A DNA stretch of 64,000 nucleotides from positions 1,058,684-1,122,683 of the forward strand of contig NW_025766975.1 in the NCBI RefSeq assembly GCF_003918875.1, given 5' to 3'. Positions 10,729 to 48,250 of the stretch are shown here, in pieces. This stretch comes from Haliotis rubra (Eukaryota). The number at the start of each line of letters is the position of its first letter. Position 1 is the first letter of the stretch. A program made the position numbers and the translations under genes. The notes below the pieces were generated by a model. The model was not told the origin of the DNA. It saw only the letters and a program-made list of their open reading frames with translations, and did no database searches.

Positions 10729-11170
10729 CTTATTTTGATTACGGAAATGATTTCGTCGCTATATTTACATCGATTTGAGGATTCAAGGAGGAGACGTGTG
10801 TTGGCGTGTATGGATGCACTCGTGAGTTACACTCGCTATTGATGATTTGACTACTGTCTCATTATAACACGTTTTGAATGAAATCTGAAAGAAAGATTTG
10901 TGTATTTTTTAATTTTGACCCCTTTGACTCTTTCTTAATGACTTGCGGCAAATACAAGCTCAAATTATTAGAAAATGATATATGTGTTTGTAAAATAATC
11001 ATCATAAATCTCACATACGTCTTTGTTTCTATTTTCTGGTCAAGTTAGATCAGTGAGAACTTTCATTTGTCCGGTAGTTCAGTTCCACTCAGTTGTTTTT
11101 TGGACAAACAATTAACAGCTTTTAAGGTCAACGTCATTTGTTTTAGACTCCTTTCTAATCTGTCACGGAA

Positions 11171-17981: not shown

Positions 17982-18226
17982 TACCCATGAAGGTCCGGGT
18001 TAGAATATTGATCTTCAGTAACCCATGCTTGTCGTAGGAGGCGACTAACGGGATCGGGTGGTCAGGCTCGCTGACTTGGTTGACACATGTCATCAGGTTC
18101 CCAATTGCGCAGATCGATGCTCATGCTGTTGATCACTGGATTGTCTGGTCCAGACTCGATTATTTACAGACCGCCGCCATCTAGCTGGAATATTGCTGAG
18201 TGAGGCGTAAAGCCAAACTCACTCAT
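17982..18226 (+). mobile_element. SINE family B, young copy-specific insertion with 13-bp TSD
   Basis: Sense-oriented copy (head ...catgaaggtccgggttagaat... to tail ...gcgtaaagccaaactcactcat). It is flanked by perfect direct repeats ataaggagaatcg at 17969-17981 and 18232-18244. It is absent from the orthologous sites in unit A (~5270) and unit B (~11770). Confidence 0.85.
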
Positions 18227-18534
18227 ACACTATAAGGAGAATCGCGGTCTAAAATATGCATTCTCTATGTTTAGGAGTAGGCTAACCATGTAACGTAATA
18301 ATTAAGACGTACTTTCCCCCCTTTACTGACACTATATCAATAACATTGGTTGCTGTATGTATAATTCATTGGGTTGTGTGGCAGTAATTGCTTGGACTGT
18401 TAGAAATGTGTTGTTTATGAAACAGCAGTGTAGGGTACATGAAGTATTGACAGGGAACGGACCTCTACTCCACATTGACTATAACAGTCTTAGCATCATT
18501 GGGTGAACATTCTTTCATCGATGCCTCCTGCTAC

Positions 18535-18660
18535 TTCTCGAGTGAGTGAGTGCAGGACTGAGTGATAGTGTGAGTGGGTGAGTGAGTGAGTGAGTGAGTG
18601 CGGGAATGAGTGATAGTGTGAGTGGGTGAGTGAGTGTGTTCCACGGACGGTGGTCTGGCG
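18535..18660. repeat. (GAGT)n-rich microsatellite block
   Basis: gagtgagtgagtgcaggactgagtgatagtgtgagtgggtgagtgagtgagtgagtgagtgcgggaatgagtgatagtgtgagtgggtgagtgagtg. A homologous block lies at 12060-12130 and 12430-12500. Confidence 0.85.
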
Positions 18661-26098: not shown

Positions 26099-29000
26099 GT
26101 TGGTCCCTGCCTGGCGCTCGGCATTAATGGGAACAAAAAGGACTGGTCGGCTTGGAGTCAGTATAATGTGTCTGAGTGGGGTATTCATGCTTCACTGCTG
26201 CATGGTATCTCAGTGGGCTAGCACTATAAAACCAGCTTCAGTCTGGGCTAGTACAAGCAGCTGCACATACACATACACACGCATGCACGTCGTCATATGA
26301 GCGAAATATTCTCAAGCACGACGTTAAACCCAATTTCACCTCCCCTCACCGTTACCAGCTCATATTGGAACATATAAAGCAAATATTAAATAACACTGCA
26401 TTGACACACTGATCGCACACCCTCAGGCTTTCAGAATACACGTTCGATGAATGTTTTTCATTAAACATAAAACATTATACAGCATTTTTGCTGTTTGCCG
26501 CAGCTGACGGCATGAGTTATTCCTGTGATTGTTGCTTTTGGTTCCCTGTTATTTCCTCTGCTCCAGTAATGCGTTTATCCTTTGCCGAGAAATTTGACTC
26601 AAGATGTCCATGGCAGAAAGAGGCCGACACAATGACTGCTAGTTGTAAATTATGCATTGTGTCTAGGCACGAACATAGCTGGATAAATAAAAGTAAAAAT
26701 ACTATTTCCATATTCATAAGAAATATTTTCTAAAATCAGAGTCGATTGAACGATCCCGACATTATCATTAGCATGTGAATCATCTTCAGTTATAACTGAT
26801 GCTTAAGTTAGCTGGCAACGTAGAGCAAAACGTTTTCTTGAATATCTCGCCAAATTATGTCCAAGGTAGACAAGATTATTTAAACCTTCAAAGCTTAGAG
26901 AATTCACATTTAGAGCCCCGTAGCATGAAAAAAATTAGAATAAGTGTACCATACCAATAAAGTATATTTTCTTGCATTTTGTTTCGTGTGAAGCAATGGA
27001 AAACATTTTGTTATTGAGTATGAATTGTAGGAATACTTGATTTTACGAATCACTGAAACATGCTCTGGCTACGAATACTAATACCCCATGGTAATGTATA
27101 TAAAACACCTTAAATTACTGCACATATTATATGGATATTTTCATGAATACATGCTTATGATATCGTTGGAATCATGCAACGCTCCGATAGTTCTTATGGT
27201 TATGGAAATGCTTGTGTTTGGCTTTAGATAAGTGTCTGTCCGAGGAAATGGTCCACGCGATGTAAGGTTATGTAAATGCTGGCAATATTAATTCATAACG
27301 TTCTAAACGAAACGAAAGTTCGAAATCCATAATTATGTATAATATTGTTCACTGTGGAAGAACGTACTACTTACATTTGTATAGATAACCGTTTAGATCA
27401 GTCGTTTTATTTCTTGAGAAAGAAATTCATTTCAACGGAATCACGGCAATCCTAGCGTTTATTGGTGTTCAATCGTTTTTTATCAACTTGTAACGTTGAA
27501 ATCAATTTCAAGTGGATCTGAAATAGACACACACATGTGACTGACATAGGATCCGAATATATAATGGCAATCTGAGGACAAAGAAAGACTTCTGGTTTGC
27601 TATGCAAGCTTCCATTCCTTCAGCTTGAGAAACATGTATTTCCTTAGAATCATTGAAACCCTCCAGGTCTGTCCGATTCAGGAGGATTTCTTGTACCGTC
27701 ACCGAATCCTGGTAATCCAGTGTACGTGATCAGGAAAGCGTTTACCATATTGATGTTCCATAATGATGATACCGATTGAATAATAACTTCTACAACAGTT
27801 CTTCCAACGGCTGTTTAGGACATTCAGGGATCAATAATGACAGTTTTATGTCACTTATCTGCTTCAAAGAATCCATGCGTGAGAGAGAGAACGGAATTCG
27901 AAATATCCGTGTCGAGTACTAGTAACTCCCCATGTCTTAATAAATGTATAGATTTGAATGAATGTGTTTTTACTTGTAAAGACTGATGATAACGTGCGGC
28001 TACTAACAAGGAATTATTTGATGACACGTTTCTATTAAGTGTGTATTATATGGGTAATTGGCAAATTCTTCGTTGTTGACAACCAGCAGCTGATCCAGAT
28101 CAATATTACCAGCATAGGCGGGTGTATTCAATAAACGATTTTTTATACTGAGTGTTGTAAAAGCTCCAAAGAGTGTGCATTATTATATTGTTTCGCTCAT
28201 ATTACTTGTTATAATTAACAGACGCTTTTGTTACAAAACGGGTAAAAAGTGCGGAATTGGATATATTTGAAGCAATTGTAAAATCTGAAACTCTGTCTAA
28301 CTAACTTTATAGAACTTACTTTGTTTGACCAGTTGTATTATTTGTTTTGCATATTCAAATCCAACTGGTATATAAAGTATACTTGAACACGTTAATGATA
28401 CGATATTTAAAGAGAGATACATATAAATGTGATATTTCCAACTGCTGTTAATCGCAGATCCTTTGTGATGCCTCTGACGAGCTCCCGATACAAAGTTTAT
28501 TGGTGACATATACTAACCCTGTAGATTGCTTCTCTCATGGATGTGTTTGCTTTCACTCACAAGCCATTCCCCTCGTCAAACATAATCTTCAATTACCTAG
28601 GCATACTGTCTCCATACCGCCATGGCAGCAAAGGAAGTAGAAGAGGACAGTCCGGAAGGCAATAGTTTGTTACGACGTGATCAAGTAAATCATGTTCCGT
28701 TTGATTGAATATAAATGCAAACATCAGTTGTTAATCCAATGAAAAATGTAATGGCATACAATCTGTGACAAACTATTTCCAGGCTGGACTAGGTTGGTAT
28801 CAACTGTAATCCCACACCAAACCTTGTGTATTCGTCTTCGATTCCTGTCATTGAAATGGCATACATAGAGTGAAGGCAATATAGAGCAAAAACGTTTCTA
28901 GAAACCTACATCCATGAATCATGTTTTATGGTTTTCTTTTTCGATTTTTCTGAAAACATTAGATCTTACGCTGTATTTTAAACCTTTGATATTTCCACAG

Positions 29001-29954
29001 CGGACATAAATCCATCATGGATTAAATAACGGTTCATTTCGGTAAGTGAGTCATTTATAAATGCCATTACCTTTTTGAAACGGACAACAGTTGTTCAAAA
29101 TGCGCTGATTAAGATTGATATCCATGTGAAAGAATCCCGAAATATGGCTTAAATAAATGATGGATGGCGTATCTAAAGATAATGGAGTTTTGAAAGAGTT
29201 GGTATACAAGACAGATGTACATGTTTTCTCAAAAGAGGGGAGGAAGGTAATTCTGAAAACACTTCATTTTATTAGATGTTAGCAAACGAGAGGATCAGTC
29301 TTTCTAAATATGTACATGATACAATGGCTTATGCTTGATGGAATAGGTACATCCAGAACGGGATGCTTGTCGTATTTATCCTTGACAAAGATGAAGCAGT
29401 TGATTCATCAAAGTAGACCAAAGACGGATGTTTGTTTTGTTTCGTTTGGTGATGAAACCATCTCCCGAGGAAAAATGGTCCTGACAGAGAAAGATGGGTG
29501 ATTGTGCTTGTCTATTGGACCTCATGACATAACTGACTCTTCCATCAATTTGGAATTGCATCGTAGTGTCAGATATATGTTTTAATCTTGAAGTGTACTA
29601 TATGAACATCGGTAGAAGTATAACAGACATCCGTGTTGCCTTGCCTTGTGGACATTTGCCCAGAATGACGCAGGTACTTATCAAGGTCCTCTCCAACTCT
29701 GAACGTGTTTATGAGTCTCTATCAACTAATGACGACACCAATTGAGCGTGAAATCAATATCATTTGTTTCAAACAGACAGTCGTTATATGCCTATATTAC
29801 CGATTGAGATGTGTTGTCAAAGTGAATAACCTGAAGGTGTTCCACACAGTGTCAAGTCAATCAGCTAGAGAATGTTCAAGCTCAATGCTGAACGGTGACA
29901 AGCTTTTATTTCACAACCACGCATTAACACAATCGCTGAGAAGGTATTTTCCTA

Positions 29955-30127
29955 GACTGACTGACTAACTGAGTTTAGTTTTACGCCGCTTTTAGCAATA
30001 TTCCAGCAATATCACGGCGGGGGAGACCAGAAATCGGCTTAACACATTGTGCCCAGGTGGGGAATCGAACCCGAGTCTTCGGCGTGACGAGCCAACGCTT
30101 TATCCACTAGGCTACCCCACCGCCCCG
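29955..30127 (-). mobile_element. SINE family A copy with (GACT)n tail, in dup copy 1
   Basis: gactgactgactaactgagtttagttttacgccgcttttagcaatattccagcaatatcacggcggg...ggggaatcgaacccgagtcttcggcgtgacgagccaacgctttatccactaggctaccccaccgccccg. Confidence 0.8.
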
Positions 30128-31254
30128 TATTTTCCTAGAGCTAGCGAGTATTGTTAACAGAGAGGTTTAGCTTCGTTCATTGTGTAGAGAAGTATCGATT
30201 CGAATAAAATGGAACCTTTGTAAGGCGTAGTATTTCTTCCGACGTTAATTAATTTTGACATAAAACATCGCAATCATAGCCCTCGATAGTTACTGTCAAC
30301 ACGAATGCTGAGTCAATCTAATGTCGACCTCAAATTGCCCTAAAAAAGTGATTGACAGAAACTTTCCAGAGTTGTTTTGATTAACTTTCGTGAACTTGCT
30401 GATTGGTTTCTTTCCAACCTTTGCATGTACCTTGCGATCAAATATTGATTGGGAATGTGATGCAGGGCTAAACAGGTTTGTTGAGCTGATAGAATAGCAT
30501 TTAATTAGTTTTTATTGGTAACATGATGCCAATATTATCTAGGAAAAGATTATGATATTTTGTGCTATTCGTTTAATTGAGTACATTATCTGATTCATCA
30601 TTTGAACTCGAAAACCCCCGATATTTTCCAAAAATGGAACTACATGCCGTTATGAATTACTCAATAAGATTTTGAAATAGGGGAGTGGCATATTTCATCA
30701 TTGTTAATGGCACTCAAATAATTACATTTCCATGTACGCTTCATGCTTGTTAGTTTCTACCAACAGGTTGGTGATTTCAAAGGGCGTCGTACAACCTTTG
30801 TTCAAAAGGTGTCTCATGAAGGTTATGATATTAGGGAACTTAGTGAAGCTTTCAAAACGTTTATGGTAGACATGTGTTTTTTTTCCAGATTTGACGCTTC
30901 AGTAACACACTGATGTCTGATGCAATTGCTTGTGACATAATGTTGTTGCTCCATGTCATCAGCGGGCCTCACCCTTCACGTGCACGTTACTGTATAACCA
31001 TCAATAAGTCAGGGGCACTGAGTACATATATAGTATGAAGTATATTTCGATAATACTATTGACTTTCACATTATACTCTATCGAAAGGGGCCTGCACTTT
31101 GCCCAGTACTCTTTCTCTTTGCAATTTGCTCAACAGACTTGTGTTTCTTATGTATGTCAACAACAGCAACAACAAAAACCGGATGGGCAAAAAATCTAGG
31201 TCACTGCCAATGCAACATGTCGGTAACACACGTGGTTATCTTCGGAGGGAGCTG

Positions 31255-31690
31255 GTTTTGTTCTAGTTTTGTTTACAACAATAACTTAAGATGTTACTTC
31301 CAAATATTCTTTAAGCCACTGCCTGTAAAAAACATTTCCCAGTGTTACAAAAAAGAGCTTCCTGGTTTGTTTGGCAGAATTTGAGGTGCCCCAAGGAGAC
31401 ACTGAAATGGAGTATATCATCCATCGTAGCAGTTGGTATTTCTTCCTGTTTTGTTTATAACAATGGGTTGGAATACAATAAGATATTATTTTAGTCTTGT
31501 TCAATAAAATCTCGACAACAAATACTAGCATTGACTGTATAATCCATTCCTCAGTGTAACAAGAAAGATCATCTTGGTTTGTTTGGCCGAATCTAAGGTC
31601 CCCCAATGGGACACTGAAATGGAGTTTAATATCAATTGACGTTGAAACAAGTGGGAGCTTAACACCACCGAAGATATAAAGAACAATCAA
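31255..31690. repeat. ~218-bp tandem repeat x2 (also 39790-40225 in copy 2)
   Basis: ...tgtttggcagaatttgaggtgccccaaggagacactgaaatggagtatatcatc... at 31364 matches ...tgtttggccgaatctaaggtcccccaatgggacactgaaatggagtttaatatcaa... at 31582. The motif tgttttgtttacaacaat precedes it at 31262 and 31448. Confidence 0.8.
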
Positions 31691-31969
31691 TTCGCTGTCA
31701 GTACAATTACAATGGGAAACCCATGGGAGGACATCACTCAATGTATTTTATTCTTTCCGTATTTTTTAGTCGTAGTACATTTGTGAAGTTTAATTGCTGG
31801 CTGAAATTGCGTACAATCGCCAGCAGCTAGACGAATGGTGTAAATCCGACTGGGAACCCCTGCAAGAAGCAGAAATCCCCAGTTTGGTGACCAAACTTTG
31901 TTTGATGTTGATCTTCAGTCCAGTTTTATACTGTGTTGCTGGATAACAATTTAATGTTTTAAAATCGTC

Positions 31970-32212
31970 TCAGACTAATCTTAAGTATAATTTGTGATAA
32001 TCTACACTAGACGCCAAAAGAAACGTTACCATCCTTCCTGAATGACTGAGGTACCTATCTTCAGCTGGCGTTGTGATGCTCGGACGACCACTTCTTGGTC
32101 TGTCTACGGTGACTCCAGTCGGTCTGGAGCCCTGAATATGTCTTATAACCGTGATACGGTGGCATCCGAGGGCGTTGGCAACGGCAATGTATTTCGACCC
32201 CATCTGCACCAT
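31970..32212 (-). pseudogene. Tc1-like transposase N-terminal (HTH/GRPR) fragment, solo
   Basis: Minus-strand ORF ...IAVANALGCHRITVIRHIQGSRPTGVTVDRPRSGRPSITTPAEDRYL... matches the Tc1/Sleeping-Beauty motif ...ISKRL.V.RS.V..IV.KY...G......RSGRPRKTTPR.DR.I. No DDE domain follows it. Confidence 0.65.
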
Positions 32213-32502
32213 CCCAATGGCCCTTTCTCTCTCTTCAGCTGTTAATCGTGGCGTATTTCTCGTACTTGTGTATCATATCATGTATTCTAGGTTCTCTTCA
32301 TACCCTATAGAATCATTCTACATTTGAAATGATTGCAAATATTGTTTGAATATTGCTGCGTTTTGGCGATTGCTATTGCTATGTGTAAACAGAAAATGGA
32401 ACAATGTTACTTTGCAAGCAAAATATTAACAAAGATAATGTAAGATGTTCCTAAACATTTTTTTCATAATATCAAAGACACGTTTAACTTGTTTTCATTA
32501 AT

Positions 32503-32750
32503 AAGTGAGTGAGTGAGTGAGTTTAGTTTTACGCCGCACTCAGCAGTATTCCAGCTATATGACGGCGCTTTGTAAATAATCGAGTCTGAACCAGACAATT
32601 CAGTGATCAACAGCATGAGCATCCATCTGCGCAATTGGGAATCGATAACATGTGTCAACCAAGTCAGTGAGCCTGACACCCGATCCCGTTAGTCGCCTCT
32701 TACGACAAGCATGGGTTACTGAAGGCTCATTCTAACCCGGACCCTCACGG
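32503..32750 (-). mobile_element. SINE family B with 12-bp TSD (gttttcaYtaat)
   Basis: Full B consensus. Flanking direct repeats gttttcattaat (32491-32502) and gttttcactaat (32751-32762). Confidence 0.85.
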
Positions 32751-35700
32751 GTTTTCACTAATGCAAATCAGCAAAAAATGTTTTAAAAGACTGAAATCAT
32801 AGGAATGATTATTTTACAATTTTACACACTCTACAACAGTTGTTTCTTGTTTTAAAGGTTGAAAAATTGTGGCTTTTAATGGTTTATCTTTGTCCCAAAG
32901 CAGATTTTATTGCAGCCTTTCTTTTGGACATCTAAATCACTATTATTGGTTGAGTTTGGCGTGGACGAAAATAGGACAATTTAACTCTTCTGAAAAAGAT
33001 GCATTTCACCTAAATGTGAATGCATTTGAGAATTTGTTTTCGTGATTTGCATAAATCTGTTGTTAAGCTTTCTTGAAAGCTAATACCTTCTAACATATCC
33101 TTGATATTTTCTAAGTAATTCATAAAGGTAGGAGGGTAACTTTTCTTTTGGCGTTTAGTGTTTGTGTTGTCTTTCGACGATAGGTTTCCATACAGTAAAA
33201 ATCTCAGAATTAGTAATTAATGATTTTCTGTCGGCATGATATATGGCTGCCTGTGACGTGGAATGTGAACGCACTCTGATGGGAGAAAGAGAATACAATT
33301 CCAGTGATAGCTGCAAAAGAAACCTAGCAGTAGACTGGATATCAAAGGTGTAATCGTCACACAACCGCTTGAAGAGAGATGCATGCACTTGCCCACTTAT
33401 GTAGTTTCAATACATTCTTGAACGTTTCACACAATGGTGCATAAACCTTTTTCAAATATTGTAACTTCCACACCTATGCTTACATTCCATAGCAAATTAT
33501 TCTTACATCCTTCCATCAAACTTTAACAAAGACAATGTAATACAACATAAACAGTGTTCACAAATGTATTAAACTAACGCTCCGATAGTTCTTATGGTTA
33601 TTGAAATGCTTCTGTTTGGCTTTAGATAAGTGTCTGTCCGAGGAAATGGTCCACGCGATGTAATGTTATCTTAATGCTGACAATATTAATTCATAACGTT
33701 CTAAACGAAAACGAAAGTTCGAAATCCAAAATTATGTATAATATTGTTCACTGTGGAAGAACGTACTACTTACTTTTGTATAGATAACCGTTTGGATCAG
33801 TCGTTATTTCTTGAGAAAGAGATTCATTTCAACGGAATCACGGCATTCCTAGCGTTTATTGGTGTTCAATCGTTTTTTGGATCTGAAATAGACACACACA
33901 TGTGACTGACATAGAAAGGATCCCATTATACAATGGCAATCTGAGGACAAAGAAAGACCTCTGGTTTGCTATGTAAGCTTCCATTTCTTCAGCTTGAGAA
34001 ACATATATTTCCTTAGAATCCCTGAAACCCTCCAGGTCTGTCCGAAGGATACCTGATTCCTGGTACTCCAGTGTACGTGATCAAGAAAGCGGTTACCATA
34101 TTGATGTTCCATAATGATGATACCGATTGAATAATAACTTCTACAACAGTTCTACCAACGGCTGTTTAGGACATTCAGGGATAAATAATGACAGTTTTAC
34201 GTCACATCTATGCGCGAGAGAGAGAACGGAACTCGAAATGTCCGTGTCGAGCACTAATAACTCCCCATGGCTTAATAAATGTATAGATTTGAATGAATGT
34301 GTTTTACGTGCAAAGACTGATGATAACGTGCGGCTACTAACACGGAATTATGTGATGACACGTTTCTATTAAGTGTGTATTATATGGGTAATTGGCAAAT
34401 TCTTCGTTGTTGACAACCAGCAGCTGATCCAGATCAATATTACCAGCATAGCTGGGTGTATTCAATGAACGATTTTTTATACTGACTGTTGTAAAAGCTC
34501 CAAAGAGTGTGCATTATTCTATTGTTTCGCTCATATTACTTGTTATAATTAACAGACGCTTTTGTTACAAAACGGGTAAAAAGTGCGGAATTGGATATAT
34601 TTGAAGCAATTGTAAAATCTGAAACTCTGTCTAACTAACTTTATAGAACTTACTTTGTTTGACCAGTTGTATTATTTGTTTTACATATTCAAATCCAACT
34701 GCGATATAAAGTATACTTGAACACGTTTATGATACGATATTTAAAGAGAGATACATATAAATGTGATATTTCCAACTGCTGTTAATCGCAGATCCTTTGT
34801 GATGCCTCTGACGAGCTCCCGATACAAAGTTTATTGGTGACATATACTAACCCTGTAGATTGCTTCTCTCATGGATGTGTTTGCTTTCACTCACAAGCCA
34901 TTCCCCCTCGTCAAACATAATCTTCAATTACCTAGGCATACTGTCTCCATACCGCCACGGCAGCAAAGGAAGTAGAAGAGGACAGTCCGGAAGGCGATAG
35001 TTTGTTACGACAGGACAGTTAATCATGTTCCGTTTGATTGAATATAAATGCAAACATCAGTTGTTAATCCAAGGAAAAATATAATGGCATACAATCTGTG
35101 ACAAACTATTTCCAGGCTGGACTAGGTTGTTATCAACTGTAATCCCACACCAAACCTTGTGTATTTGTCTTCGTTTCCTTTTATTTAAATGGCATACATA
35201 GAGTGAAGGCAAAATAGAGCAAAAACGTTTTTAGAAACCTAAATCCATGAATCATGTTTTATGGTTTTCTTTTTCGATTTTTCTGAAAACATTAGATCTT
35301 ACGCTGTATTTTAAACCTTTGACATTTCCACAGAGGACATAAATCCATCATGGATTAAATAACGGTTCATTTCGGTAAGTGAGTCATTTATAAATGCCAT
35401 TACCTTTTTGAAACGGACAACAGTTGTTGAAAATGCGCTGATTAAGATTGATATCCATGTGAAAGAATCCCGAAATATGGCTTAAATAAATAATGGATGG
35501 CGTATCTAAAGATAATGGAGTTTTGAAAGAGTTGGTATACAAGACAGATGTACATGTTTTCTCAAAAGAGGGGAGGAAGGTAATTCTGAAAACACTTCAT
35601 TTTATTAGATGTTAGCAAACGAGAGGATCAGTCTTTCTAAATATGTACATGATACAATGGCTTATGCTTGATGGAATAGGTACATCCAGAACGTGATGCT

Positions 35701-36081
35701 TGTCGTATTTATCCTTGACAAAGATGAAGCAGTTGATCCATCAAAGTAGACCAAAGACGGATGTTTGTTTTGTTTCGTTTTGTGATGAAACCATCTCCCG
35801 AGGAAAAATGGTCCTGACAGAGAAAGATGGGTGATTGTGCTTGTCTATTGGACCTCATGACATAATTGACTCTTCCATCAATTTGGAATTGCACCCTAGT
35901 TTCAGATATATGTTTTACTCTTGAAGTGTAAAATATGAACATCGGTAGAAGTATAACAGGCGTCCGTGTTGCCTTGCGTTGTGGACATTTGCCCAGAATG
36001 ACGCAGGTACTTATCAAGGTCCTCTCCAACTCTGAACGTGTTTATGAGTCTCTATCAACTAATGACGACACCAATTGAGCG

Positions 36082-38286
36082 GGTTAGGTCTACTAATGCC
36101 TACAGGGAATAATGCCTACAGGGAATAATAGCTACAACGTTTGCAGTGACAGCGATACGCTTACCTGCACACAAGTAGATTGTTCCACTTAGTGTGCACT
36201 ATTGCCTACAAAGGGATTAGGGGAGGCCAGCAAGGAGAGTAAAGAGTAAGATCAAGAGTATTAAATCGTTAGCTAGCTTATGTTTTGATAATTCCATACG
36301 CATTTAGTTCTCACCCGAGAAGGAAATTGAAGAGTAAAGTAATTAATAGAGAGAGATTATTAAAGGGAGAAGGAAATGTATTGCTTTAAAATTCTTGTGA
36401 TACAAATCTTCATTGCAAATCATGGCAAATCCCAAGAAAGTCGAATACTTCACATCACAGAAAGGAGGACAGCAGGTACTCTTGGAGGGGATACCGCTAC
36501 AGACTCAACAACAGGCGACAGACGTGTGTACACTGGAAGTGTGTTCAAGGTGGCTGCTTTGGCAAGTGTACGACAGTCGGAATCAGACCCCACACAACCA
36601 CCCACAAGAAGACCAGGTAGCCCTGAAGATTGCCAGTTCCCTGAGGCAGCGGGTACAGACTGAGACGACGCCAGTTCAGGTGATCTACGATGAGGAGATT
36701 TCCCGACTTGACCGAGGTGAAGCAGCAACAGTCAAGTCGTTCCATTCTATGAAGAGTGGACTCTACAAGCAGAGACGGAAGATGATGCCGCCACTTCCCC
36801 AGACGCTCAGCGAGGTGAATCTACCCGACTTATTCAAGGAGACTACAGATGGACTGCCCTTCCTCTGCATTGATGACGGTGATGATGACAAGATTCTCTG
36901 CTTCGCCAAAAGTGACCGCCTGACCCTCCTGCAAGAAGTGGACACCCTCTACATGGACGGCACCTTCTACTCCTGTCCTCCTCTCTGGGATCAGCTGTAC
37001 GTCATCCATGGCCTAGTCGGAGGGAAGATGACCCAGTTGGTCTTCTGTCTACTGCCGAATCGTCAACGCCGCACCTATGAACGCCTGCTACGTCTCCTGA
37101 ACGACAAGATCCAGCAGACAACGGGATCGCCCCTTCAGCCTGATGTCATCCAGACGGATTTCGAAATCGCTGCCATCAACGCTGTTGAGACCGTCTTCCC
37201 CAACTGCGACGTCCGTGGATGCTATTTCCACTACAGCCAGGCTCTCTGGAGGAAAGTACAGAACCTCGGCTTCAGCGAAGCCTACCAGCAGGATCCTGAG
37301 GTCCACAGATGGGTCCGACGAGCAGCAGCACTCCCCTCCTCCCAGTGGCCATGGTACAAAATGCCTGGATAGAGGTCATGGACGACGCCCCTGCCATTGG
37401 ACAGAAGGATGAGTTCCAGGACTACATCACCAGCACCTGGGTAGACGACCATGCACGGTTCCGAGCCGGACTATGGAATCACCACGACACCAGCGGCCCA
37501 AGGACGAACAATCATCTCGAGGGTTGGCATTCGCATCTCAACAAGACCGTCCAGAGAGCCCACCCGAACATTTTCGCTCTTGTGAAGGTTCTGCAGAAGC
37601 TGGAGAAAGCGGAGAGAAATAAGCTGGTGCAGATGGCTCATGGCGCCCGTCCCCCACCCTGCAAGAGGACGTACACAGAAATTGACCAGAGACTCACTCG
37701 TCTGAAGGCCCAGCTGACATCTGGTATCAAGGCACCCCTGGAATTCCTGACTGCTGCAGGATATTTGATCAAGCTAGTTTGAAAACCAAATGACTATGTT
37801 GATGAATGTGTGAAACTGTGTGTATACATGTAAATTACTTTTGGTTACCACAATGACTTTATTAATGAATGTGGTAGTTGACTGTGTGAAAGATGTATAT
37901 ATGTATATATAATCATGAATCAAATTAAGTTTTAATTACATTTTAATCCAAATAAATGATTATGTTTATTTATGTAAATTTATTTATCTCAAAACAAACT
38001 ACTATGTGAAAGATATGAATAAAGTTTAAGAAAATTAAGAAAAATATGACAACAATGTGAAAGATATGTATATGAATGTACATATGTATATGAATGACCA
38101 AATAAAATGTCTCTCAACATAGAAAGTTACTGTTTTCTATATACTGTAGGCATTAGTGCACTTTGAAATAGGACCATGCCACTTTATTGAAAGGTTGAAG
38201 GCAGGTGCAATTAGCAGCACTGGTGCGTAAAGTTGTTTATTTAACACTGTAGGCATTATTCACTGTAGGCATTAGTAGACTCCACC
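36082..38286 (+). mobile_element. Mutator-like (MULE) DNA transposon, 2205 bp, with TIRs and 8-bp TSD
   Basis: Left end ggttaggtctactaatgcctacagggaataatgcctacagggaata. The reverse complement of the right end is ggtggagtctactaatgcctacagtgaataatgcctacagtg (42-bp TIR with an internal 17-bp subrepeat). TSD attgagcg at 36074-36081 and 38287-38294. The empty site caccaattgagcgtgaaatc is intact at 29738-29757 in the paralogous copy. Confidence 0.85.
36413..37782 (+). pseudogene. MULE transposase (frameshifted; ORFs 36413-37372 and 37309-37782)
   Basis: DGTFYSCPPLWDQLYVIHG...CLLPNRQRRTYERLL...IQTDFEIAAINAVETVFPNCDVRGCYFHYSQALWRKVQ... and, downstream, ...WNHHDTSGPRTNNHLEGWHSHLNK... are diagnostic MULE/Mutator transposase motifs. 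The reading frame shifts by 1 nt within 37300-37370 (the ctcccctcctccc tract). The N-terminus (KVEYFTSQKGGQQVLLEG...C..W) is weakly FLYWCH-like. Confidence 0.8.
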
Positions 38287-38504
38287 ATTGAGCGTGAAAT
38301 CAATATCATTTGTTTCAAACAGACAGTCGTTATAAGACTATATTACCGATTGAGATGTGTTGTCAAAGTGAATAACCTGAAGGTGTTCCACACAGTGTCA
38401 AGTCAATCAGCTAGAGAATGTTTAAGCTCAATGCTGGACGGTGACAAACTTTTATTTCACAATCACGCATTAACACAATCGCTGAGAAGGTATTTTCCTA
38501 GACT

Positions 38505-38673
38505 GACTGACTGACTGAGTTTAGTTTTACGCCGCTTTTAGCAATATTCCAGCAATATCTCGGCGGGGGACACAAGAAATGGGCTTAACACATTGTGCCC
38601 ATGTGGGGAATCAAACCTGGGACTTCGGCGTGACGAGCCAACGCTTTAACCACTAGGCTACCCCACCGCCCCG
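38505..38673 (-). mobile_element. SINE family A copy (paralogue of 29955-30127)
   Basis: Identical structure and position in dup copy 2. Confidence 0.8.
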
Positions 38674-40527
38674 TATTTTCCTAGAGCTAGCGAGTATTGT
38701 TAACAGAGAGGTTTAGCTTCGTTCATTGTGTAGAAAAGTATCGATTCGAATAAAATGAAACCTTTGCAAGGCGTAGTATTTCTTCCGACGTTAATTAATT
38801 TTCACATAAAACATCGCAATCATAGCCCTCGATAGTTACTGTCAACACGAATGCTGAGTCAATCTAATATCGATCTCAAATTGCCCTAACAAGTGATTGA
38901 CAGAAATGTTCCACTGGCAAAACTGAGTTGTTTTGATTAACTTTCGTGAACTTGCTGATTGGTTTCTTTCCAACCTTTGCATGTACCTTGCGATCAAATA
39001 TTGATTGGGAATGTGATGCAGGGCTGGACAGGTTTGTTGAGCTGATAGAGTAGCATTTAATTATTTTTTATTAGTAACATGATGCCAATATTATCTAGGA
39101 AAGATTATGATATTTTGTGCTATTCGTTTAATTGAGTACATTATCTGATTCATCATTTGAACTTGAAAAAAATGATATTTTCAAAAAGGGAACTACATGC
39201 CGTTATGAATTACTCAATAATATTTTGAAATAGGGGAGTGGCATGTTTCATCATTGTTAATGGCACTCAAATAATTACTTTTCCATGTACGCTTCATGCT
39301 TGTTAGTTTCTACCAACAGGTTGGTGGTTTCAAAGGGCGTCGTACGACTTTTGTTCCAAAGTTGTCTCATGAAGGTTATGATGTTAGGGAACTTAGTGAA
39401 GCTTTCAAAACGTTTATGGTAGACATGTGGAGGTATTTCCAGATTTGACGCTTCAGTAACACACGGATGTCTGATGCAATTGCTTGTGGCATAATGTTGT
39501 TGCTCCATGTCATCAGCGGGCCTCACCCTTCACGTGCACGTTACTGTATAACCATCAATAAGTCAGGGGCACTGAGTACATATATAGTGTGAAGTATATT
39601 TCGATAATACTATTGACTTTCACATTATACTCTATCGAAAGGGGTCTACACTCTCCCAAGTACTATTTCTCTTTGCAATTTGCTCAGCAGACTTGTGTTT
39701 CTTATGTATGGCAACAACAGCAACAACAAAAACCGGATGGGAAAAACATCTAGGTCACTGCCAATGCAACATGTCGGTCACACACGTGGTTATCTTCGGA
39801 GGGAGCTGATTTTGTTCTAGTTTTGTTTACAACAATAACTTAAGATGTTACTTCCAAATATTCTTTAAGCCACTGCCTGTAAAAACCATTTCCCAATGTT
39901 ACAAAAAAGAGCTTCCTGGTTTGTTTGGCTGAATTTGAGGTGCCCCAAGGAGACACTGAAATGGAGTATATCATCCATCGTGGCAGTTGGTTTTGTTCCT
40001 GTTTTGTTTCTAACACTGGGTTGGAATACAATAAGATATTATTTTTTTCTTGTTCAATAAAATCTCGACAACAAATACTAGCATTTCCAGCAGCTGTATA
40101 ATCCATTCCTCAGTGTAACAAGAAACATCATCTTGGTTTGTTTGGCCGAATCTGAGGTCCCCCAATGGGACACTGAAATGGAGTGTAATATCAATTGACG
40201 TTGAAACAAGTGGGAGCTTAACACCGCCGAAGATATAAAGAACAATCAATTCACTGTCAGTACAATTACAATGGGAAACCCATGGGAGGACATCACTCAA
40301 TGTATTTTATTCTTTCCGTATTTTTTAGTCGTAGTACATTTGTGAAGTTTAATTGCTGGCTGAAATTGCTTACAATCGCCAGCAGCTAGACGAATGGTGT
40401 AAATCCGACTGGGAACCCCTGCAAGAAGCAGAAATCCCCAGTTTGGTGACCAAACTTTGTTTGATGTTGATCTTCAGTCCAGTTTTATACTGTGTTGCTG
40501 GATAACAATTTAATGTTTTAAAATCGT

Positions 40528-40770
40528 CTCAGACTAATCTTAAGTATAATTTGTGATAATCTACACTAAACGCCAAAAGAAACATTACCACCCTTCTGAA
40601 TGACGGAGGTACCTATCTTCAGCTGGCGTTGTGATGCTCGGACGACCACTTCTTGGTCTGTCTACGGTGACTCCAGTCGGTCTGGAGCCCTGAATATGTC
40701 TTATAACCGTGATACGGTGGCATCAGAGGGCGTTGGCAACGGCATTGTATTTCGACCCCATCTGCACCAT
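40528..40770 (-). pseudogene. Tc1-like N-terminal fragment (paralogue of 31970-32212)
   Basis: Same sequence at the paralogous position. The antisense ORF 40600-40803 mirrors ORF 32042-32245. Confidence 0.6.
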
Positions 40771-41040
40771 CCCAATGGCCCTTTCTCTCTCTTCAGCTGT
40801 TAATCGTGGCGTATTTCTCGTACTTGTGTATCATATCATGTATTCTAGGTTCTCTTCATACCCTATAGAATCATTCTACATTTGAAATGATTGCAAATAT
40901 TGTTTGAATATTGCTGCGTTTTGGCGATTGCTATTGCTATGTGTAAACAGAAAATGGAAAAATGTTAACAAAGATAATGTTAGATGTTCCTAAACATTTG
41001 TTTATTATATCAAAGACACGTTTTACTTGTTTTCACTAAT

Positions 41041-41273
41041 AAGTGAGTGAGTGAGTTTAGTTTTACGCCGCACTCAGCAGTATTACAGCTATATGACGGC
41101 GGTCTGTAAATAATCGAGTCTGGACCAGACAATCCAGTCATCAACAGCATGAGCATCCATCTGCGCAATTGGGAACCGATGACATGTGTCAACCAAATCA
41201 GCGAGTCTGACACCCGATCCCGTTAGTCGCCTCTTACGACAAGCATGGGTTACTGAAGGTTCATTCCAACCCG
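41041..41273 (-). mobile_element. SINE family B (paralogue of 32503-32750, with a 10-bp deletion at the head)
   Basis: Same TSD gttttcactaat on both sides. The head ends ccaacccgg|ttttcactaat instead of ccggaccctcacgg. Confidence 0.85.
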
Positions 41274-42106
41274 GTTTTCACTAATGCAAACCAGCAGAAA
41301 ATGTGTTAAAAAACTCAAATCATAGGAATGATTATTTTACAATTTTACACACTCTACAACAGATGTTTCTTGTTTTAATGTTTGAAAAATTGTGACTTTT
41401 AATGGTTTATCTTTGTCCCAAAGCAGATTTTATTTCAGCCTTTCTTTTGGACATCTAAATCACTATTATTGTTTGAGTTTGGCGTGGACGAAAATAGGAC
41501 AATTTAACTCTTCTGAAAAAGATGCATTTCACCTAAATGTGAATGCATTTGAGAATTTGTTTTCGTGATTTGCATAAATCTGTTGTTAAGATCTCTTGAA
41601 AGCTAATACCTTCTAACATAATATCCTTGATATTTTCTAAGTAATTCATAAAGGTAGGAGGGTAACGTTTCTTTTGGCGTTTAGTGTTTGTGTTGTCTTT
41701 CGACGATAGGTTTCCATACAGTAAAAATCTCAGAATTAGTCATTAATGATTTTCTGTCGGCATGATATATGGCTGCCTGTGATGGAATGTGAACTCACTC
41801 TGATGGGAGAAAGAGAATACAACTCCAGTGATAGCTGCAAAAAGAAACCTAGCAGTAGACTGGATATCAAAGGTGTAATCGTCACACAACCGCTTGAAGA
41901 GAGATGCATGCACTTGCCCACTTATGTAGTTTGTACATTCTTGAACGTTTCACACAATGGTGCATAAACCTTTTTCAAATATTGTAACTTCCACACCTAT
42001 GCTTACATAGCATAGCAAATTATTCTTACAACCTTCCATCAAACTTTAACAAAGACAATGTAATACAACATAAACAGTGTTTACAAATGTATTAAACTAC
42101 CACATA

Positions 42107-43407
42107 CAGTACAACCAGAAATTATTGAGAATTTAAAGATTGTAATTTTTTATATTATTTTCACTCATTACTCACGTATTAAATGTGAATATTAGCAGAA
42201 CATAACTCCAGATTCAAAGACAGGTGAACAGTTAGTATTTTGTCAAGTCACCATGGGCAGCAATGCAGGCTTCAATGCGGCGGGGCATACTACTGATCAA
42301 AGAAGTTAGAAAGTCGTGGTCCATGCTGTCCCAATATCGGACCACCTCTTCTTTCAATTCAGCAATATTTGTCAGATTTTTCTTATTGACACTTTCCTTC
42401 ATAAGTCCCCAAACATTTTCTATTTGATTTAGGTCAGGGCTATAGCTTGGCCAATCTTATAATGTCATATTTTGGGTCCGAAACCAGGCCTGTGAATGCT
42501 TTGAACGATGTTTTGGGTCGTTGTCCTGCTGGAAAATCCAAACATTTCCATAGAACACGTGAGCAGATGGAAATAAATGTCCCTCGAGAATATTTGTGTA
42601 CCGCTCACTGTTCATATTCCCTTCAAATACACAGAGGGGCGTTGCCCCTAACACAGATATGCCACACCACACGTTAAATTTCGGACTGTACTTTGGGCGC
42701 TGATACAAAGGTCTTTCAGTTTGTTTGGTCCAGAATTTCAGTGTATTAGGAAACAGCCACACAGAACTTTCATCTGAGAAAATCACATTGTCCCAGTTAA
42801 AATTTCTATGCTGTAAGCACCAGTTCAACCTTCGCTCCTTTTGTTCAGGTTTCATGATCGGTGATGGAATTCCTCGACTTTTCTACCAACCCATTGCATG
42901 CAGCTCAGTTCTTATTGTCTCCTTACAGACAGCCACAGTTCCTCTATCAATCATATCCAGCCTTAAGTTTTCTAAACGCCTTCGTTTGTTTTTAGAAACA
43001 AGAATACCAAGCCGCCTCCTGTCACCGACAGTCAATTTTCTGGGCCTACCTGCGCCTCCCTGGTGCTCAATGCCATATCCATTTGCAATATTTTCAAAAC
43101 ACGATAAACAGTGGACAAAGGGATGCCTGTTCTACTTGAAATCACTTTAGCTGATCTGATGTCCTTGTTATAATACTCTAAAATCAACTTCCTCTTCTCT
43201 AAATCATCCATACTGAGGATCACTGAAAATGTCGTCTGCTAGCAAGTAAACAAAGGGGGATAACTCTTCACAAACTAATGAAAAAGGGTTAACGGAGTTG
43301 TCTCTCTTGAATGAAACCAAACACTTGATAGCTGGTCAAGGTTGTTTATACTAGAAATCCAATTATTAAACATATTCCTAAAATTCTCAATAATTTCTGG
43401 TCATACT
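42107..43407 (-). mobile_element. Tc1-like DNA transposon with TIRs and TA target site
   Basis: Left end TA|cagtacaaccagaaattattgagaattt. The right end is aaattctcaataatttctggtcatacta|TA, whose reverse complement is tagtatgaccagaaattattgagaattt. It encodes a full-length Tc1 transposase on the minus strand. Confidence 0.85.
42232..43223 (-). pseudogene. Tc1-like transposase, about 330 aa, with at least 2 frameshifts
   Basis: N-terminus MILSMDDLEKRKLILEYYNKDIRSAKVISSRTGIPLSTVYRVLK (HTH). Middle QKERRLNWCLQHRNFNWDNVIFSDESSVWLFPN...NVWCGIS...FQQDNDPKHRSK (DDE). C-terminus in a third frame, ...PSYSPDLNQIENVWGLMKESV...SMPRRIEACIAAHGDLTKY*. The span of 992 bp is not a multiple of 3. Confidence 0.85.
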
Positions 43408-45559: not shown

Positions 45560-48250
45560 CCGACAGTAGAAATATCTAACCGCCGTGTCTGTTCTATACT
45601 GCTTAAACTCCTGATTGTCCGCTTAGTCCCTCCTCCAGGAGAGGGGGGTAAACTGCACAATCACGTCAAAGTATTACCTGCTTTAATTGAATGGATACTA
45701 AAAACATCTATGTTTTAAACACTTGGATGCATTTGTCTTAAATATCAAAGCAAAGTTTACTTTGGTAGATTTGAGATAGATCCAGGAGCTTCGTAAAAAG
45801 TTTCCCTTGCAATGTTTGTTGGTGACCTTAACGACTCGGTGTATCAAGGTTTACTTCTGTCATTAGACGCTCCTCTGCTCGTCGAACATAGTCTTTAATT
45901 TAACAAGGCTCACAGCAGGAGACCACTGGCTGACAGCTCGTCCAGGCACGACAATGAAATGGAATCATTTAATGCAAATGTCAGCCCAAACTAAGCAAAA
46001 TGTTATATCATATATACACAGGGGAAACTTCAGCAGGTTAGACAAGGTTAATCAAAACGTCAAAGCCTATGTAGCATGAAATATTGAGTTTTCGTCTATG
46101 TCAATGGACCGATAGTCTTTAGAAGTTAATGAAAACCTACTCTCGTAAATCATGTTCACGGACATACTTTCGTTGTGGGTAATGACAATCATTGTCATGG
46201 ATCTTTATCTATAAACTCTATAGCATATTCGATCTGAATCCATATGAGTTACACAAATAATAATGTTAAGACACACGAAAATGTAATGGCATGAATTATG
46301 TGGGAAGTATGCCTATGCTGGACTAGGGTATCAACAATTGTCAAATCTCCACACAAAACCTAAAGTATTCATGCATATTTCCTTTATTAGATGACATACA
46401 TAGACATAACACAAACCAGAGCATTGTATACCTGTTTCGAGTTTTCTCAAAGCAATTCATCTTACTCCGTATCGTAAACCTTGACATTTCCACAGAGGCT
46501 GTAAATCTATCATAGATTAAATAGCCATTCATTTCAGTTCCGAATCGTTCAGAAATGCCATTACCTTTAAGACACATTTATGTTCAGACAGCAGTAGTTG
46601 ACTAAGCGCTGATTAAGATTGGTATCCACTTTCAACTACGAGGAAGAAATACGTAGTTTGAACTGATCTTGACCATGTCAGAAATACCAGTCCAAGGAAA
46701 TTCATTGTAACTGAAGAAAACATCCTCATAAATCCATGTAAACATAGTGACGAAACCATTTCCGTAATCAAAGTAATCTGAGGCCATTGTATGACTTCGA
46801 CCTCAGCACAAGCATTTGTTTATGGACCCGTGAAGATCCGGGTTAGAATTGGTCTTTTGAAACCCTGCTTGTCGTAAGAGACGACTAACTAAGGCTTGCT
46901 GAGTTGGTTGAAGCATGCCATCATATTCCAATTGTATAGATCGATGCTCATGATGTCTGTCACTGGATTGACTGGTCTAGACTCGATTATTTTACAGACT
47001 ACTGTCGTATTGCTGAGTGAGGCGTTAAACACACAAAGAAATAAAAATGTGTTTATGAATCTCTATCAACTAAGGATGATACCAGTCGAGCTAATATCAA
47101 CATTATTCGCTTGAAACATTATATGACTACATTGGCAATTGAGGTGTGTTGTTAAAGTGAATTACATGAAAATGTTCTAAGCAGTGTCAAGTCAGTCAAC
47201 TTGACAATAATTAAACTCAATGTAAACCACAACGGGAAAGCCTTTATTTAACAAATCACGCTTCAAAACAAGCGCCGAGAAGGTCTTTCAATAGAGCAAG
47301 CAAGTATAATTAACATGCATGTTTAGCTTCGTTCATTGTAGAAAAGTATCGATTCTGATAAAATGAAACCTTTGTTATGCGTTATATTTCTTCCGAAGTT
47401 AATCAGTATCAAAGCAACACCTCACAACCGTAGCCGTCGATATTGTCAACATGAATACTGAGTCAATCAAATGTCGATCTCAACTGCCGTAAAGAGTGAT
47501 TGACAGGGACATTTCCAGGTGGCGAAACTGAGCTGTTTTGATTAACTTTCGTGAACTTACTGATTGGTTTCTTTCTAATCTTCGCATGTACCTTGCGATC
47601 AAATATTGATTGGGATTTGTGATTTGGCATTTCAGGATTGTTGAGTTAATAACTATTTTTATTGGTAGCATGATGGCAATATTTTCATAGAAAACAATAC
47701 GATATTTTGTGTTTTTTTAATTTAGTACGTAATTCAATTAACCGCTTGAACAATTTATATTTTCGGAAACGGATCTACATGCCGCTATAAATTACTCAAA
47801 AGGTTTTGATAAGGCGGTGGCAGGCTTCATCAGTGTTAATGGCACTCAAATAATCACTTTTCCATGTACGCTTCATGCTTGATAGTTTCTACCAACAGGT
47901 TGGTGGTTTCAAAGAGCGTAGGACGACTTTTGCCTCAAAGTTGTTTGTTGAGGGTTTCGACATTCAAGTACGTAGTACAGCTTTCAAAACGTTTATAGTA
48001 GACATGAGGGAGGATTTCCAAATTTGATGCTTCAATAACACACTATACTTCAATAACTGTCTAATGCAATTGCTTATTTTCACAAGTGCCAATTTTATTC
48101 ACGTGTTGTTTCAGTTCATCAGTTGACCTCACTTGTCCGTGACGCCATCAATACGATAGGAGCATCGAGTACATACATAGTACAAAGTATATTTCGATGA
48201 TACTATTGACCTTCATATAATACAAATAACGTCAGATATAATAAGCTTTA
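45560..48250. repeat. Ancient diverged collinear copy of part of the 6.4-kb duplication unit
   Basis: 46270-46700 ~ 28720-29150 (about 75%) and 47040-48250 ~ 29697-31100 (about 85%), in the same order and spacing. It lacks the family-A SINE that copies 1 and 2 carry at 29955 and 38505. It is interrupted by a + strand family-B SINE at 46771-47035. Confidence 0.7.
46771..47035 (+). mobile_element. SINE family B, sense orientation, with extended head
   Basis: gaggccattgtatgacttcgacctcagcacaagcatttgtttatggacccgtgaagatccgggttagaattggtc...gactactgtcgtattgctgagtgaggcgttaaacac. Confidence 0.8.

Follow-up and report, generated by a model that had tools for sequence, protein, structure and literature searches.

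Mutator-like elements (MULEs) with a FLYWCH zinc finger, target-site duplications (TSDs) of 8–10 bp and short or variable terminal inverted repeats (TIRs) have already been described as the Phantom/Muta group (PMC6446971, PMC5225508); the Muta families correspond to group 20 (Phantom) of Dupeyron et al. 2019 (PMC6446971). Muta1 possesses 8–9-bp TSDs, a terminal motif followed by 12-bp subterminal repeats with 3–4-bp linkers, a FLYWCH finger and a mode of excision which proceeds via hairpins on the flanking DNA (PMC5225508, PMC5499845). TSDs of 8–9 bp are usual for animal MULEs (PMC5225508, PMC6446971), while TIR lengths range from 13 to 1193 bp in animal MULEs (PMC13359780) and from 18 to 613 bp in Phantom (PMC6446971). 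MULEs were found in every mollusc genome analysed, and 39 curated bivalve consensus elements exist (PMC10294476); the Repbase-derived groups MULE-Cg and MULE-Mollusca are listed among the closest mollusc systems. Maize MuDR and the plant MULEs resemble the element reported here in that they transpose by cut-and-paste, produce long TSDs and have a DDE core with the C/DxxH motif (Pfam MULE). As a rule, however, the TIRs of plant MULEs exceed 100 bp, their TSDs measure 9–11 bp, their fingers are of the WRKY/SWIM type instead of FLYWCH, and a second ORF is often present (PMC6446971). Since FLYWCH-MULEs with 8–9-bp duplications and 12-bp subterminal repeats are thus known from Phantom/Muta, and MULEs have been catalogued in molluscs, the suggestion in a preliminary description of the present locus that the element may represent an undescribed family of a poorly catalogued kind is weak (PMC6446971, PMC5225508, PMC10294476).

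The element was located by direct reading and repeat analysis in the window, i.e., the whole stretch of 64,000 nucleotides of gastropod DNA that was analysed. It occupies 2205 bp at 36082–38286 (forward strand), within the second of two tandem copies of a longer unit, and is missing from copy 1 and from a third copy. Reading across the insertion in copy 2, gacgacaccaATTGAGCG is followed by GGTTAGGTCTAC at the left boundary and GTAGACTCCACC by ATTGAGCGtgaaatc at the right boundary. The element is flanked by ATTGAGCG at 36074–36081 and, identically, at 38287–38294; this duplication is perfect and, with no further match between the bases that adjoin its two copies on either side, exactly 8 bp long. 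Both the insertion and its TSD had been placed correctly in the preliminary description.

The TIRs, which had been given as 42 bp long, match at 37 of 42 positions (88%), and a repeat search gave arms of 43 nt at the same identity (36088–36130 and 38238–38280). The left TIR (36082–36130, forward strand) begins with the terminal motif GGTTAGGTCTAC and contains the 12-mer TAATGCCTACAG at 36094–36105 and 36110–36121, with a degenerate third unit beginning at 36126. The period of these 12-mers is 16 bp, and the direct sub-repeat of the left TIR consists of the 16-bp unit TAATGCCTACAGGGAA, present twice at 36094–36125; an internal sub-repeat does exist as had been reported, with a unit of 16 rather than 17 bp. 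In the right TIR (38238–38286, reverse strand) the terminal motif is GGTGGAGTCTAC and the 12-mers lie at 38247–38258 and 38263–38274. A further copy of the end motif is found inside each end, GTGCACTATTGCCTACAA at 36195–36212 on the forward strand, about 110 bp inside the left end, and GTGCACTAATGCCTACAG at 38144–38161 on the reverse strand, about 125 bp inside the right end. All five occurrences of TAATGCCTACAG in the window fall within the ends of the element, with 0.33 occurrences expected; a 14-mer representing the ends is ACTAATGCCTACAG. As judged from their sequence the ends appear intact, and the copy could perhaps still be mobilised in trans. An ARAGORN scan detected no tRNA-derived SINE heads.

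The tandem duplication of approximately 6.4 kb is real in the sequence. The unit begins with ACGCTCCGATAG and ends with AAACTA. Copy 1 extends over 6399 bp (27178–33576); in copy 2 (33577–42099), the unit accounts for 6318 bp and the insertion for 2205 bp. The identity of the two copies is lower than the 98% first reported, namely 96.5–96.7% over aligned bases and 93.9–95.0% when gaps are counted, with 60 gap openings over 6.4 kb (two lineages). Near the insertion site the copies are 97.7% identical in the left 600 bp and 95.7% in the right 600 bp. At the matching position copy 1 reads caccaATTGAGCGtgaaatcaatatc, with a single ATTGAGCG at 29741–29748; the complete empty-site string spans 29736–29761 and not 29738–29760. 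The pair of filled and empty sites is valid, and it is strengthened by a second empty site, GTCGAGC at 47085–47091, in a partial, older copy of the unit (47046–48043) which is 75–80% diverged and uninterrupted at the insertion site (aligned over 47046–47288). The two copies had been termed paralogs; however, no Pfam family was found in the 6.4-kb unit when all stop-free segments of at least 45 amino acids on both strands were searched, a test which would miss short exons or lineage-specific genes, and the units are thus to be regarded as duplicated DNA rather than as demonstrated genes. The adjacent region at 2–22 kb of the window contains an independent array of at least three tandem units with 84–96% identity.

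The interior of the element is occupied by a transposase pseudogene (36422–37782, forward strand), whose conceptual product comprises 455 amino acids once three frameshifts are corrected and then aligns end to end with intact homologues of 457–459 amino acids. The region 36413–37782, previously taken as one ORF, is in fact split across frames (36413–37372 and 37309–37782), with a double frameshift in the zinc finger in addition. The part coding for the FLYWCH finger (36446–36611, forward strand) is disrupted twice, by an additional A near 36491 and, near 36578–36580, by a deletion whose size was estimated at about 10 bp from the gap in the alignment. The MULE and FLYWCH domains that had been suspected were both recovered with Pfam. 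PF04500 (FLYWCH) scored 29.7 bits against a cutoff of 23.6 in the frame-corrected protein only, the raw ORF giving no match; PF10551 (MULE) scored 45.8–46.7 bits against a gathering cutoff of 27.6, the higher value being that of residues 176–273 of the raw ORF. The catalytic core as delimited by Pfam (36947–37240, forward strand) includes D181 (LYMDGTF), D248 (IQTDFE) and C269xxH272. The third frameshift, the loss of one nucleotide in a run of C at 37333–37336 (forward strand), was recognised by a frame switch in tblastn, which occurred between 37321 and 37336 with each of three different homologues; adding one C restores the consensus RRAAxLPLLP. As a result of this frameshift, W354 and the catalytic E369 are read in a different frame from the first 300 residues. 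With the zinc finger scrambled and E369 out of frame, this copy is no longer able to make transposase and is non-autonomous. Of the three frameshifts, the one in the C-run might reflect an error of sequencing; homopolymer errors do not account for the remaining two. The three indels of the ORF would also fit a long period of decay at this site.

As to the history of the locus, an insertion after the tandem duplication is most probable, on the sole ground of parsimony. The order of events given in the preliminary description is thus the most parsimonious one, while its designation of the insertion as recent goes beyond the data, precise excision of the kind known from Muta1 being a live alternative (PMC5225508). 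According to this alternative, the element would have been inserted before the 6.4-kb duplication, inherited by both copies and later lost precisely, together with one TSD, from copy 1. Muta1 excision in yeast was precise in about 90% of cases when the donor was flanked by 8- or 9-bp TSDs (PMC5225508); since precise excision is so frequent, a clean empty site is, for an element of this kind, no proof of a site that was never occupied, and the TSD and its flanks hold too few sites for dating the event. Nevertheless, a loss of this kind would seem improbable, since it requires two events instead of one, and since the older third copy is empty as well, which would confine the insertion to the interval between two duplications. 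The number of indels in the ORF, three versus about six expected for 1.37 kb since the duplication (an expectation derived from the 60 gap openings between copies 1 and 2), also leans weakly to a younger insertion (Poisson P ~0.12).

Slightly less probable still is an explanation of the tandem duplication as an assembly artefact, in which two divergent haplotypes of a single heterozygous locus were placed end to end and the filled and empty sites would be alleles, i.e., a presence/absence polymorphism. The genomes of marine molluscs show high heterozygosity, and their assemblies often contain false haplotypic duplications; the occurrence of exactly two copies with clean breakpoints, and a divergence of about 3.4% with many small indels, would be in keeping with such an origin. 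However, the window is without an N gap and the junction is seamless, and both the independent array at 2–22 kb and the diverged third copy at 47046–48043 indicate that this locus genuinely duplicates in tandem.

The assignment of the inserted element to the MULE DNA transposons with a FLYWCH zinc finger, short sub-repeated TIRs and an 8-bp TSD holds. Very probably it is a cut-and-paste MULE of the FLYWCH-finger type that is best represented by Phantom/Muta, in the form of a non-autonomous copy inactivated by frameshifts. For MULEs, TSDs of 8–11 bp are expected; here the TSD measures 8 bp, as in the sister element from Haliotis cracherodii (see below), and 7–10 bp, with a mode of 8, in nine bounded relatives. 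The TIRs (42–43 bp at 88%) are short for the superfamily, yet they fall inside the range of lengths published for animal MULEs. The DDE triad, the (C/D)xxH motif and the conserved W are all present, with E369 out of frame in this copy; in an alignment of 17 sequences D181, D248, C269/H272, W342 and E369 were invariant or nearly so, and W354 stood within a conserved WNH context. Typical of Phantom/Muta are the N-terminal FLYWCH finger, seen after correction of two frameshifts, and subterminal tandem repeats at both ends, in which units of about 12 bp alternate with linkers of 3–4 bp.

This likeness is based on domains, ends and motifs, the Muta1 protein having been compared via peptides translated from published mutagenesis primers, which lie around mutagenised, essential residues. 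IV-D214-GTF of Muta1 corresponds to LYM-D181-GTF of the element, S-D283-FE to T-D248-FE, CFF-H307-LSQ..W313-KR to CYF-H272-YSQ..W278-RK, SL-W401 to GL-W354 and NQI-E419-AW to NHL-E369-GW; the spacings from D to H (24) and from H to W (6) are common to both. Every residue for which an essential role was demonstrated in Muta1 is retained in the coding region of the element. As in Muta of Aedes aegypti, a single transposase of about 450–550 amino acids carries an N-terminal FLYWCH and a C-terminal DDE domain, the TSD is 8 bp (8 or 9 in Muta), and a short terminal motif starting with GG is followed by 12-bp repeats with 3–4-bp linkers, 12 + 4 giving the 16-bp period observed here. Frameshifted and non-autonomous copies are likewise common in Muta families. 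The element is smaller than Muta1 (2.2 versus 3.2 kb) and its TIRs are shorter, with 42–43 bp and, at each end, two to three repeat units besides one internal unit, compared to 145 bp and nine units, although other short Muta TIRs are known (Muta3, 16 bp; Muta12, 59 bp). Unlike in Muta1, the terminal motif is non-palindromic, the two ends differ at positions 4–6 and no intron is evident; moreover, the host is a gastropod and not a mosquito. An identity as hAT element might be suggested by the single-ORF layout, the shortness of the TIRs and the TSD of 8 bp, and also by a C/DxxH motif and W which hAT elements have in common with MULEs. It was ruled out on domain evidence and is extremely improbable: in the Pfam search MULE exceeded its curated cutoff, and neither the hAT dimerisation domain nor any other hAT-type domain appeared at E ≤ 0.1; every named homologue has a MULE domain, and the catalytic motifs match those of Muta1 residue by residue.

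Searches with the transposase yielded 93 homologues, including full-length FLYWCH+MULE proteins of 457–459 amino acids in Haliotis, Gigantopelta, Mytilus, Pinctada and others; the homologues carry PF04500. Related but uncharacterised mollusc proteins of this type are those of H. cracherodii (locus L001), H. asinina (P0002) and Gigantopelta aegis (P0005); no gene record was obtained on look-up of P0007. Protein identity is 71–72% to P0003 and 49–53% to the intact 457–459-aa proteins. A search of PDB sequences gave insignificant matches only, the best relevant one being human FLYWCH1 (E = 0.3), and thus no close relative has a solved structure. Exact look-up of six ORFs of the window in a collection of 15 billion proteins gave no match.

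The sister element in H. cracherodii (L001, 3233–5388) is 2156 bp long and has an 8-bp TSD, CTTGATCT. It shares with the element of the window the termini GGTTAGGTCTACTAATGCCTACAG, the repeat layout, the size class and the length of the TSD, and its left end is 87.5% identical to the left TIR. The left internal motif forms a conserved island (CACTTAGTGTGCACTATTGCCTACA versus TACTTAGTGTTCACTAATGTCTACA) amid otherwise unalignable non-coding DNA, and the position of the right internal motif is also kept (motif at 5249). Nucleotide identity amounts to about 65% over the whole element and reaches about 70% in the coding region, below the 80% commonly required within a family; the two elements thus belong to different families of the same lineage. 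Outside the coding region, conservation between the two is seen in the terminal motif, in the 12-mers with their 16-bp period and in a single internal site at each end; presumably, these are where the transposase binds.

By homology with Muta1, the biochemistry of which has been published, a transposase of the family, acting in trans or encoded by this copy itself prior to its decay, would have bound the terminal motif GGT..GTCTAC, the 12-bp subterminal repeats at 16-bp spacing and the internal repeat about 110–125 bp inside each end. The donor would then have been cut via a hairpin on the flanking DNA, the 3'-OH ends joined to target phosphates with an 8-bp stagger, and repair of the gaps would have produced the duplication of ATTGAGCG. 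Continuing mobility of the family in this gastropod is possible but rather doubtful; in this case, a recent tandem duplication would have been followed by mobilisation in trans of the defective copy, whose ends are intact. If this were true, a mollusc would harbour a live compact FLYWCH-MULE (2.2 kb, 42-bp TIR), uncatalogued at the family level, which would be comparable to Muta1 or to the recently reported active MULE of a worm and a potential vector for transgenesis or mutagenesis in molluscs. Knowledge of the biology of MULEs is unchanged by this locus, and its value lies mainly in annotation. Since one filled and two empty sites occur together in the window, it constitutes a clean internal control, by which the precise ends and the target duplication of 8 bp are established for one molluscan FLYWCH-MULE lineage; a curated consensus for abalone-like genomes could start from it, and the search for an autonomous copy could be aided.

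Among more distant relatives, the locus of H. asinina (L002) contains an intact ORF of 459 amino acids and clear TIRs with an ambiguous TSD; its TIR sequences, and those of a Logan relative (L004), differ from those of the element in the window. Subterminal repeats of the 12-mer type at 16-bp period occur also in L001; L002, L004, L065 and L075 show the same arrangement with different sequences. A candidate from H. rufescens (L003), with 71% similarity in the coding part, lacks the TIR motif; it is a truncated remnant and was rejected as of no use for defining ends. An automated scan for TIRs and TSDs in 84 related loci yielded nine bounded elements, with TSDs of 8 bp (five elements), 8 or 10 bp (one), 9 bp (two) and 7 bp (one), whereas shifted controls yielded 2, 0 and 0.

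The locus is a neat textbook pair of filled and empty sites. In copy 2 of a 6.4-kb tandem duplication, reading of 35950-38450 gave ...caccaATTGAGCG, then a 2205-bp segment (36082-38286), then ATTGAGCGtgaaatcaatatc; in copy 1 (29650-29850 read) the site is caccaATTGAGCGtgaaatcaatatc, with a single ATTGAGCG at 29741-29748. The target-site duplication (TSD) is exactly 8 bp, since the bases flanking both repeats outward are unlike each other. A third copy without the element is likewise uninterrupted at this site (CCAGTCGAGC-TAATATC), so that two empty homologous sites stand against one filled. The preliminary description of this pair was confirmed almost to the base.

By self-BLAST, copy 1 extends from 27178 to 33576 and copy 2 from 33577 to 42099, the latter broken only by the element. 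The breakpoints are clean (unit start ACGCTCCGATAG, unit end AAACTA). The copies are 96.5-96.7% identical where bases are aligned, or 93.9-95.0% with gaps counted, and not 98% as first described. Nor did their description as paralogs in the sense of genes find support, because no Pfam family was matched in any stop-free stretch of at least 45 amino acids on either strand of the duplicated unit, and a Tc1-like helix-turn-helix (HTH) remnant is present there; the unit is TE-rich duplicated DNA. A more sensitive search revealed the third, partial copy at 47046-48043, 75-80% diverged, which implies an earlier round of duplication and serves as an outgroup empty site. A haplotype-duplication artefact of the assembly is a less likely origin of the two units; a further, independent array of tandem units at 2-22 kb and the diverged third copy both argue that the locus really duplicates. 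This upstream array (2094-22138, self-BLAST) comprises three or more units, each about 6-7 kb long, with pairwise identities of 95.6% (5686-8497 and 12992-15796), 91% (12450-13443 and 18608-19565) and 85% (9754-10770 and 2094-3098).

The most parsimonious history places the insertion later than the duplication, and the empty third copy supports this order. With TSDs present, about 90% of the excisions of Muta1, a FLYWCH-MULE of Aedes aegypti, are precise and take out the element together with one TSD (PMC5225508). For an element of this kind, an empty site that is clean thus says less than it would for most transposons. The same description had called the insertion recent, which does not follow. 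Between the two unit copies, 60 gap openings were counted in 6.4 kb, from which about 6 indels per 1.37 kb are predicted per lineage since duplication; the three indels in the open reading frame (see below) could therefore have accumulated at the present site during much of this period, allowing a long residence. Alternatively, they were inherited, and the element copy was moved in trans.

The region 36413-37782, taken initially as a single open reading frame, spans more than one. Three-frame translation and tblastn with three homologues located three disruptions. An additional A is present at about 36491, about 10 bp (judged by the alignment gap) are deleted at about 36578-36580, and one C is lost from the C run at 37333-37336. 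The frame-corrected product of 455 amino acids matched Pfam MULE with 45.8 bits (curated threshold 27.6) and FLYWCH with 29.7 bits (threshold 23.6), as had been proposed, the FLYWCH match disappearing when the frame was left uncorrected. It could be aligned end to end with intact FLYWCH plus MULE proteins of 457-459 amino acids; D181, D248, C269/H272, W342 and E369 were invariant or almost invariant, and W354 is part of a conserved WNH motif.

The terminal inverted repeats (TIRs) are GGTTAGGTCTACTAATGCCTACAGGGAATAATGCCTACAGGG (left) and, as reverse complement, GGTGGAGTCTACTAATGCCTACAGTGAATAATGCCTACAGTG (right); the arms agree at 37 of 42 positions, and a repeat search gave 43 nt with 88%. Five occurrences of the 12-mer TAATGCCTACAG were counted in the 64-kb window (0.33 expected), always in the element ends: twice with a 16-bp period at the left, twice with the same period at the right, and once about 100 bp further inward from there. 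A degenerate copy, TATTGCCTACAA, is found about 110 bp inward of the left end. The 3' non-coding part (37783-38140) is AT-rich, with AATAAA signals and short dispersed repeats (TGTGAAAGAT(A)TG and AATGACTATGTTGATGAATGTG, three times each), and is not conserved in the sister element described next.

A homology search yielded 93 proteins, with those of abalones closest: Haliotis cracherodii (72% over 67% of the query), H. rufescens (68%) and a full-length H. asinina protein (52%), followed by Gigantopelta, Mytilus, Pinctada, a scallop, the horsehair worm Gordionus, a mite and a moth. A LINE fragment elsewhere in the window (see below) likewise has its best named matches in H. asinina, so that the host is probably an abalone-like vetigastropod. 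The transposase family is large and widely sampled; in an exhaustive phmmer search with the intact H. asinina protein, 15,571 representative clusters passed E <= 1e-3, and 991 passed E <= 1e-30. A sister element of 2156 bp was found in H. cracherodii (locus L001, 3233-5388), with ends GGTTAGGTCTACTAATGCCTACAG... and ...CTGTAGGCAATAGTGGACTCCTCC, three repeats at 16-bp spacing at the left, two at the right together with a further internal one, and a perfect 8-bp TSD, CTTGATCT. Overall identity is only about 65%, rising to about 70% in the coding part, and UTR-like parts are essentially unalignable; the TIRs and internal motif copies form conserved islands, as expected for putative cis-acting transposase-binding sites.

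When 84 related loci, taken from genomes and from metagenome contigs, were scanned automatically for inverted-repeat ends bordered by direct repeats, nine bounded elements were obtained (shifted-register controls: 2, 0 and 0). TSDs were 8 bp in five, ambiguously 8 or 10 bp in one, 9 bp in two and 7 bp in one, consistent among relatives as anticipated; termini mostly start with GG, and several have subterminal repeats of 14-16-bp period. Four 8-bp TSDs (this window, L001 and the metagenome loci L075 and L082: ATTGAGCG, CTTGATCT, TTTTGAGG, GTTGTGGC) contain TTG near the 5' side, too few sites for calling a target preference; Muta1 has none. Relatives of this eukaryotic transposase are encoded in environmental metagenome contigs (cf. 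loci L005-L084) by at least 314 stretches, several being complete elements with TIRs and TSDs, which presumably reflects eukaryotic DNA in the samples.

Muta1 is the studied model, with a FLYWCH plus DDE transposase, TSDs of 8 or 9 bp, and TIRs consisting of a terminal motif, GGGTCTACCC, required for transposase binding, and 12-bp subterminal repeats with linkers of 3-4 bp, which strengthen it; excision proceeds by double-strand breaks with hairpins on flanking DNA, and target joining via 3'-OH ends (PMC5225508, PMC5499845). Peptides around residues proven essential by experiment (PMC5225508) were recovered by translating the published mutagenesis primers (Table S3, PMC5225508), and the element matches them motif for motif: IV-D214-GTF and LYM-D181-GTF, S-D283-FE and T-D248-FE, CFF-H307-LSQNF-W313-KR and CYF-H272-YSQAL-W278-RK, SL-W401 and GL-W354, NQI-E419-AW and NHL-E369-GW (Muta1 first), with a D-to-H spacing of 24 in both. 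The element shows the parts list of Muta1 in miniature, and because of this shared list, movement by a Muta1-type pathway (binding of motif and repeats, flank-hairpin excision, 3'-OH joining) would be the best-supported explanation. The heptamer GGTCTAC of the left end (36087-36093; AGTCTAC at the right, 38275-38281) is also contained in the Muta1 terminal motif (PMC5225508 Table S3), lying 5 nt farther from the tip in the element; the agreement may be fortuitous or may mark a conserved recognition core.

Such elements had been thought poorly catalogued, and this one perhaps an undescribed family. Dupeyron et al. (2019) listed Phantom (group 20, with the Muta elements) for invertebrates; its TIRs measure 18-613 bp and its TSDs 8-10 bp, and the fingers are of FLYWCH or another type. 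They also gave two Repbase mollusc groups, MULE-Cg and MULE-Mollusca (PMC6446971). Martelossi et al. (2023) found MULEs in every mollusc genome of their analysis and produced 39 curated MULE consensus elements for bivalves (PMC10294476), and a 2026 arthropod survey listed 322 MULE types with TIRs of 13-1193 bp (PMC13359780). Invertebrate short-TIR FLYWCH-MULEs are therefore an already described kind. Within it, the element probably forms a family of its own, since even the nearest relative that could be retrieved shares about 65% identity with it.

Other repeats are present in the window. An interspersed repeat of about 200-240 bp (90-96% identity, both orientations), SINE- or MITE-like in appearance, occurs at 615-811, 1360-1602, 17983-18231 (-), 32508-32752 and 41042-41281, so that both units of the 6.4-kb duplication contain one copy; no tRNA-like head was detected in it by ARAGORN. 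Tc1/mariner-type remnants at 42460-42855 (-), 58974-59381 (+) and 31973-32272 (-), the last within the duplicated unit, matched DDE_3 (22.8 bits) and HTH domains, all under Pfam gathering scores. A LINE fragment at 50503-51588 (-) contains an open frame of 362 amino acids (RVT_1, 48 bits; cutoff 29.6), and the best named relatives of this reverse transcriptase are from H. asinina (76-85% identity).
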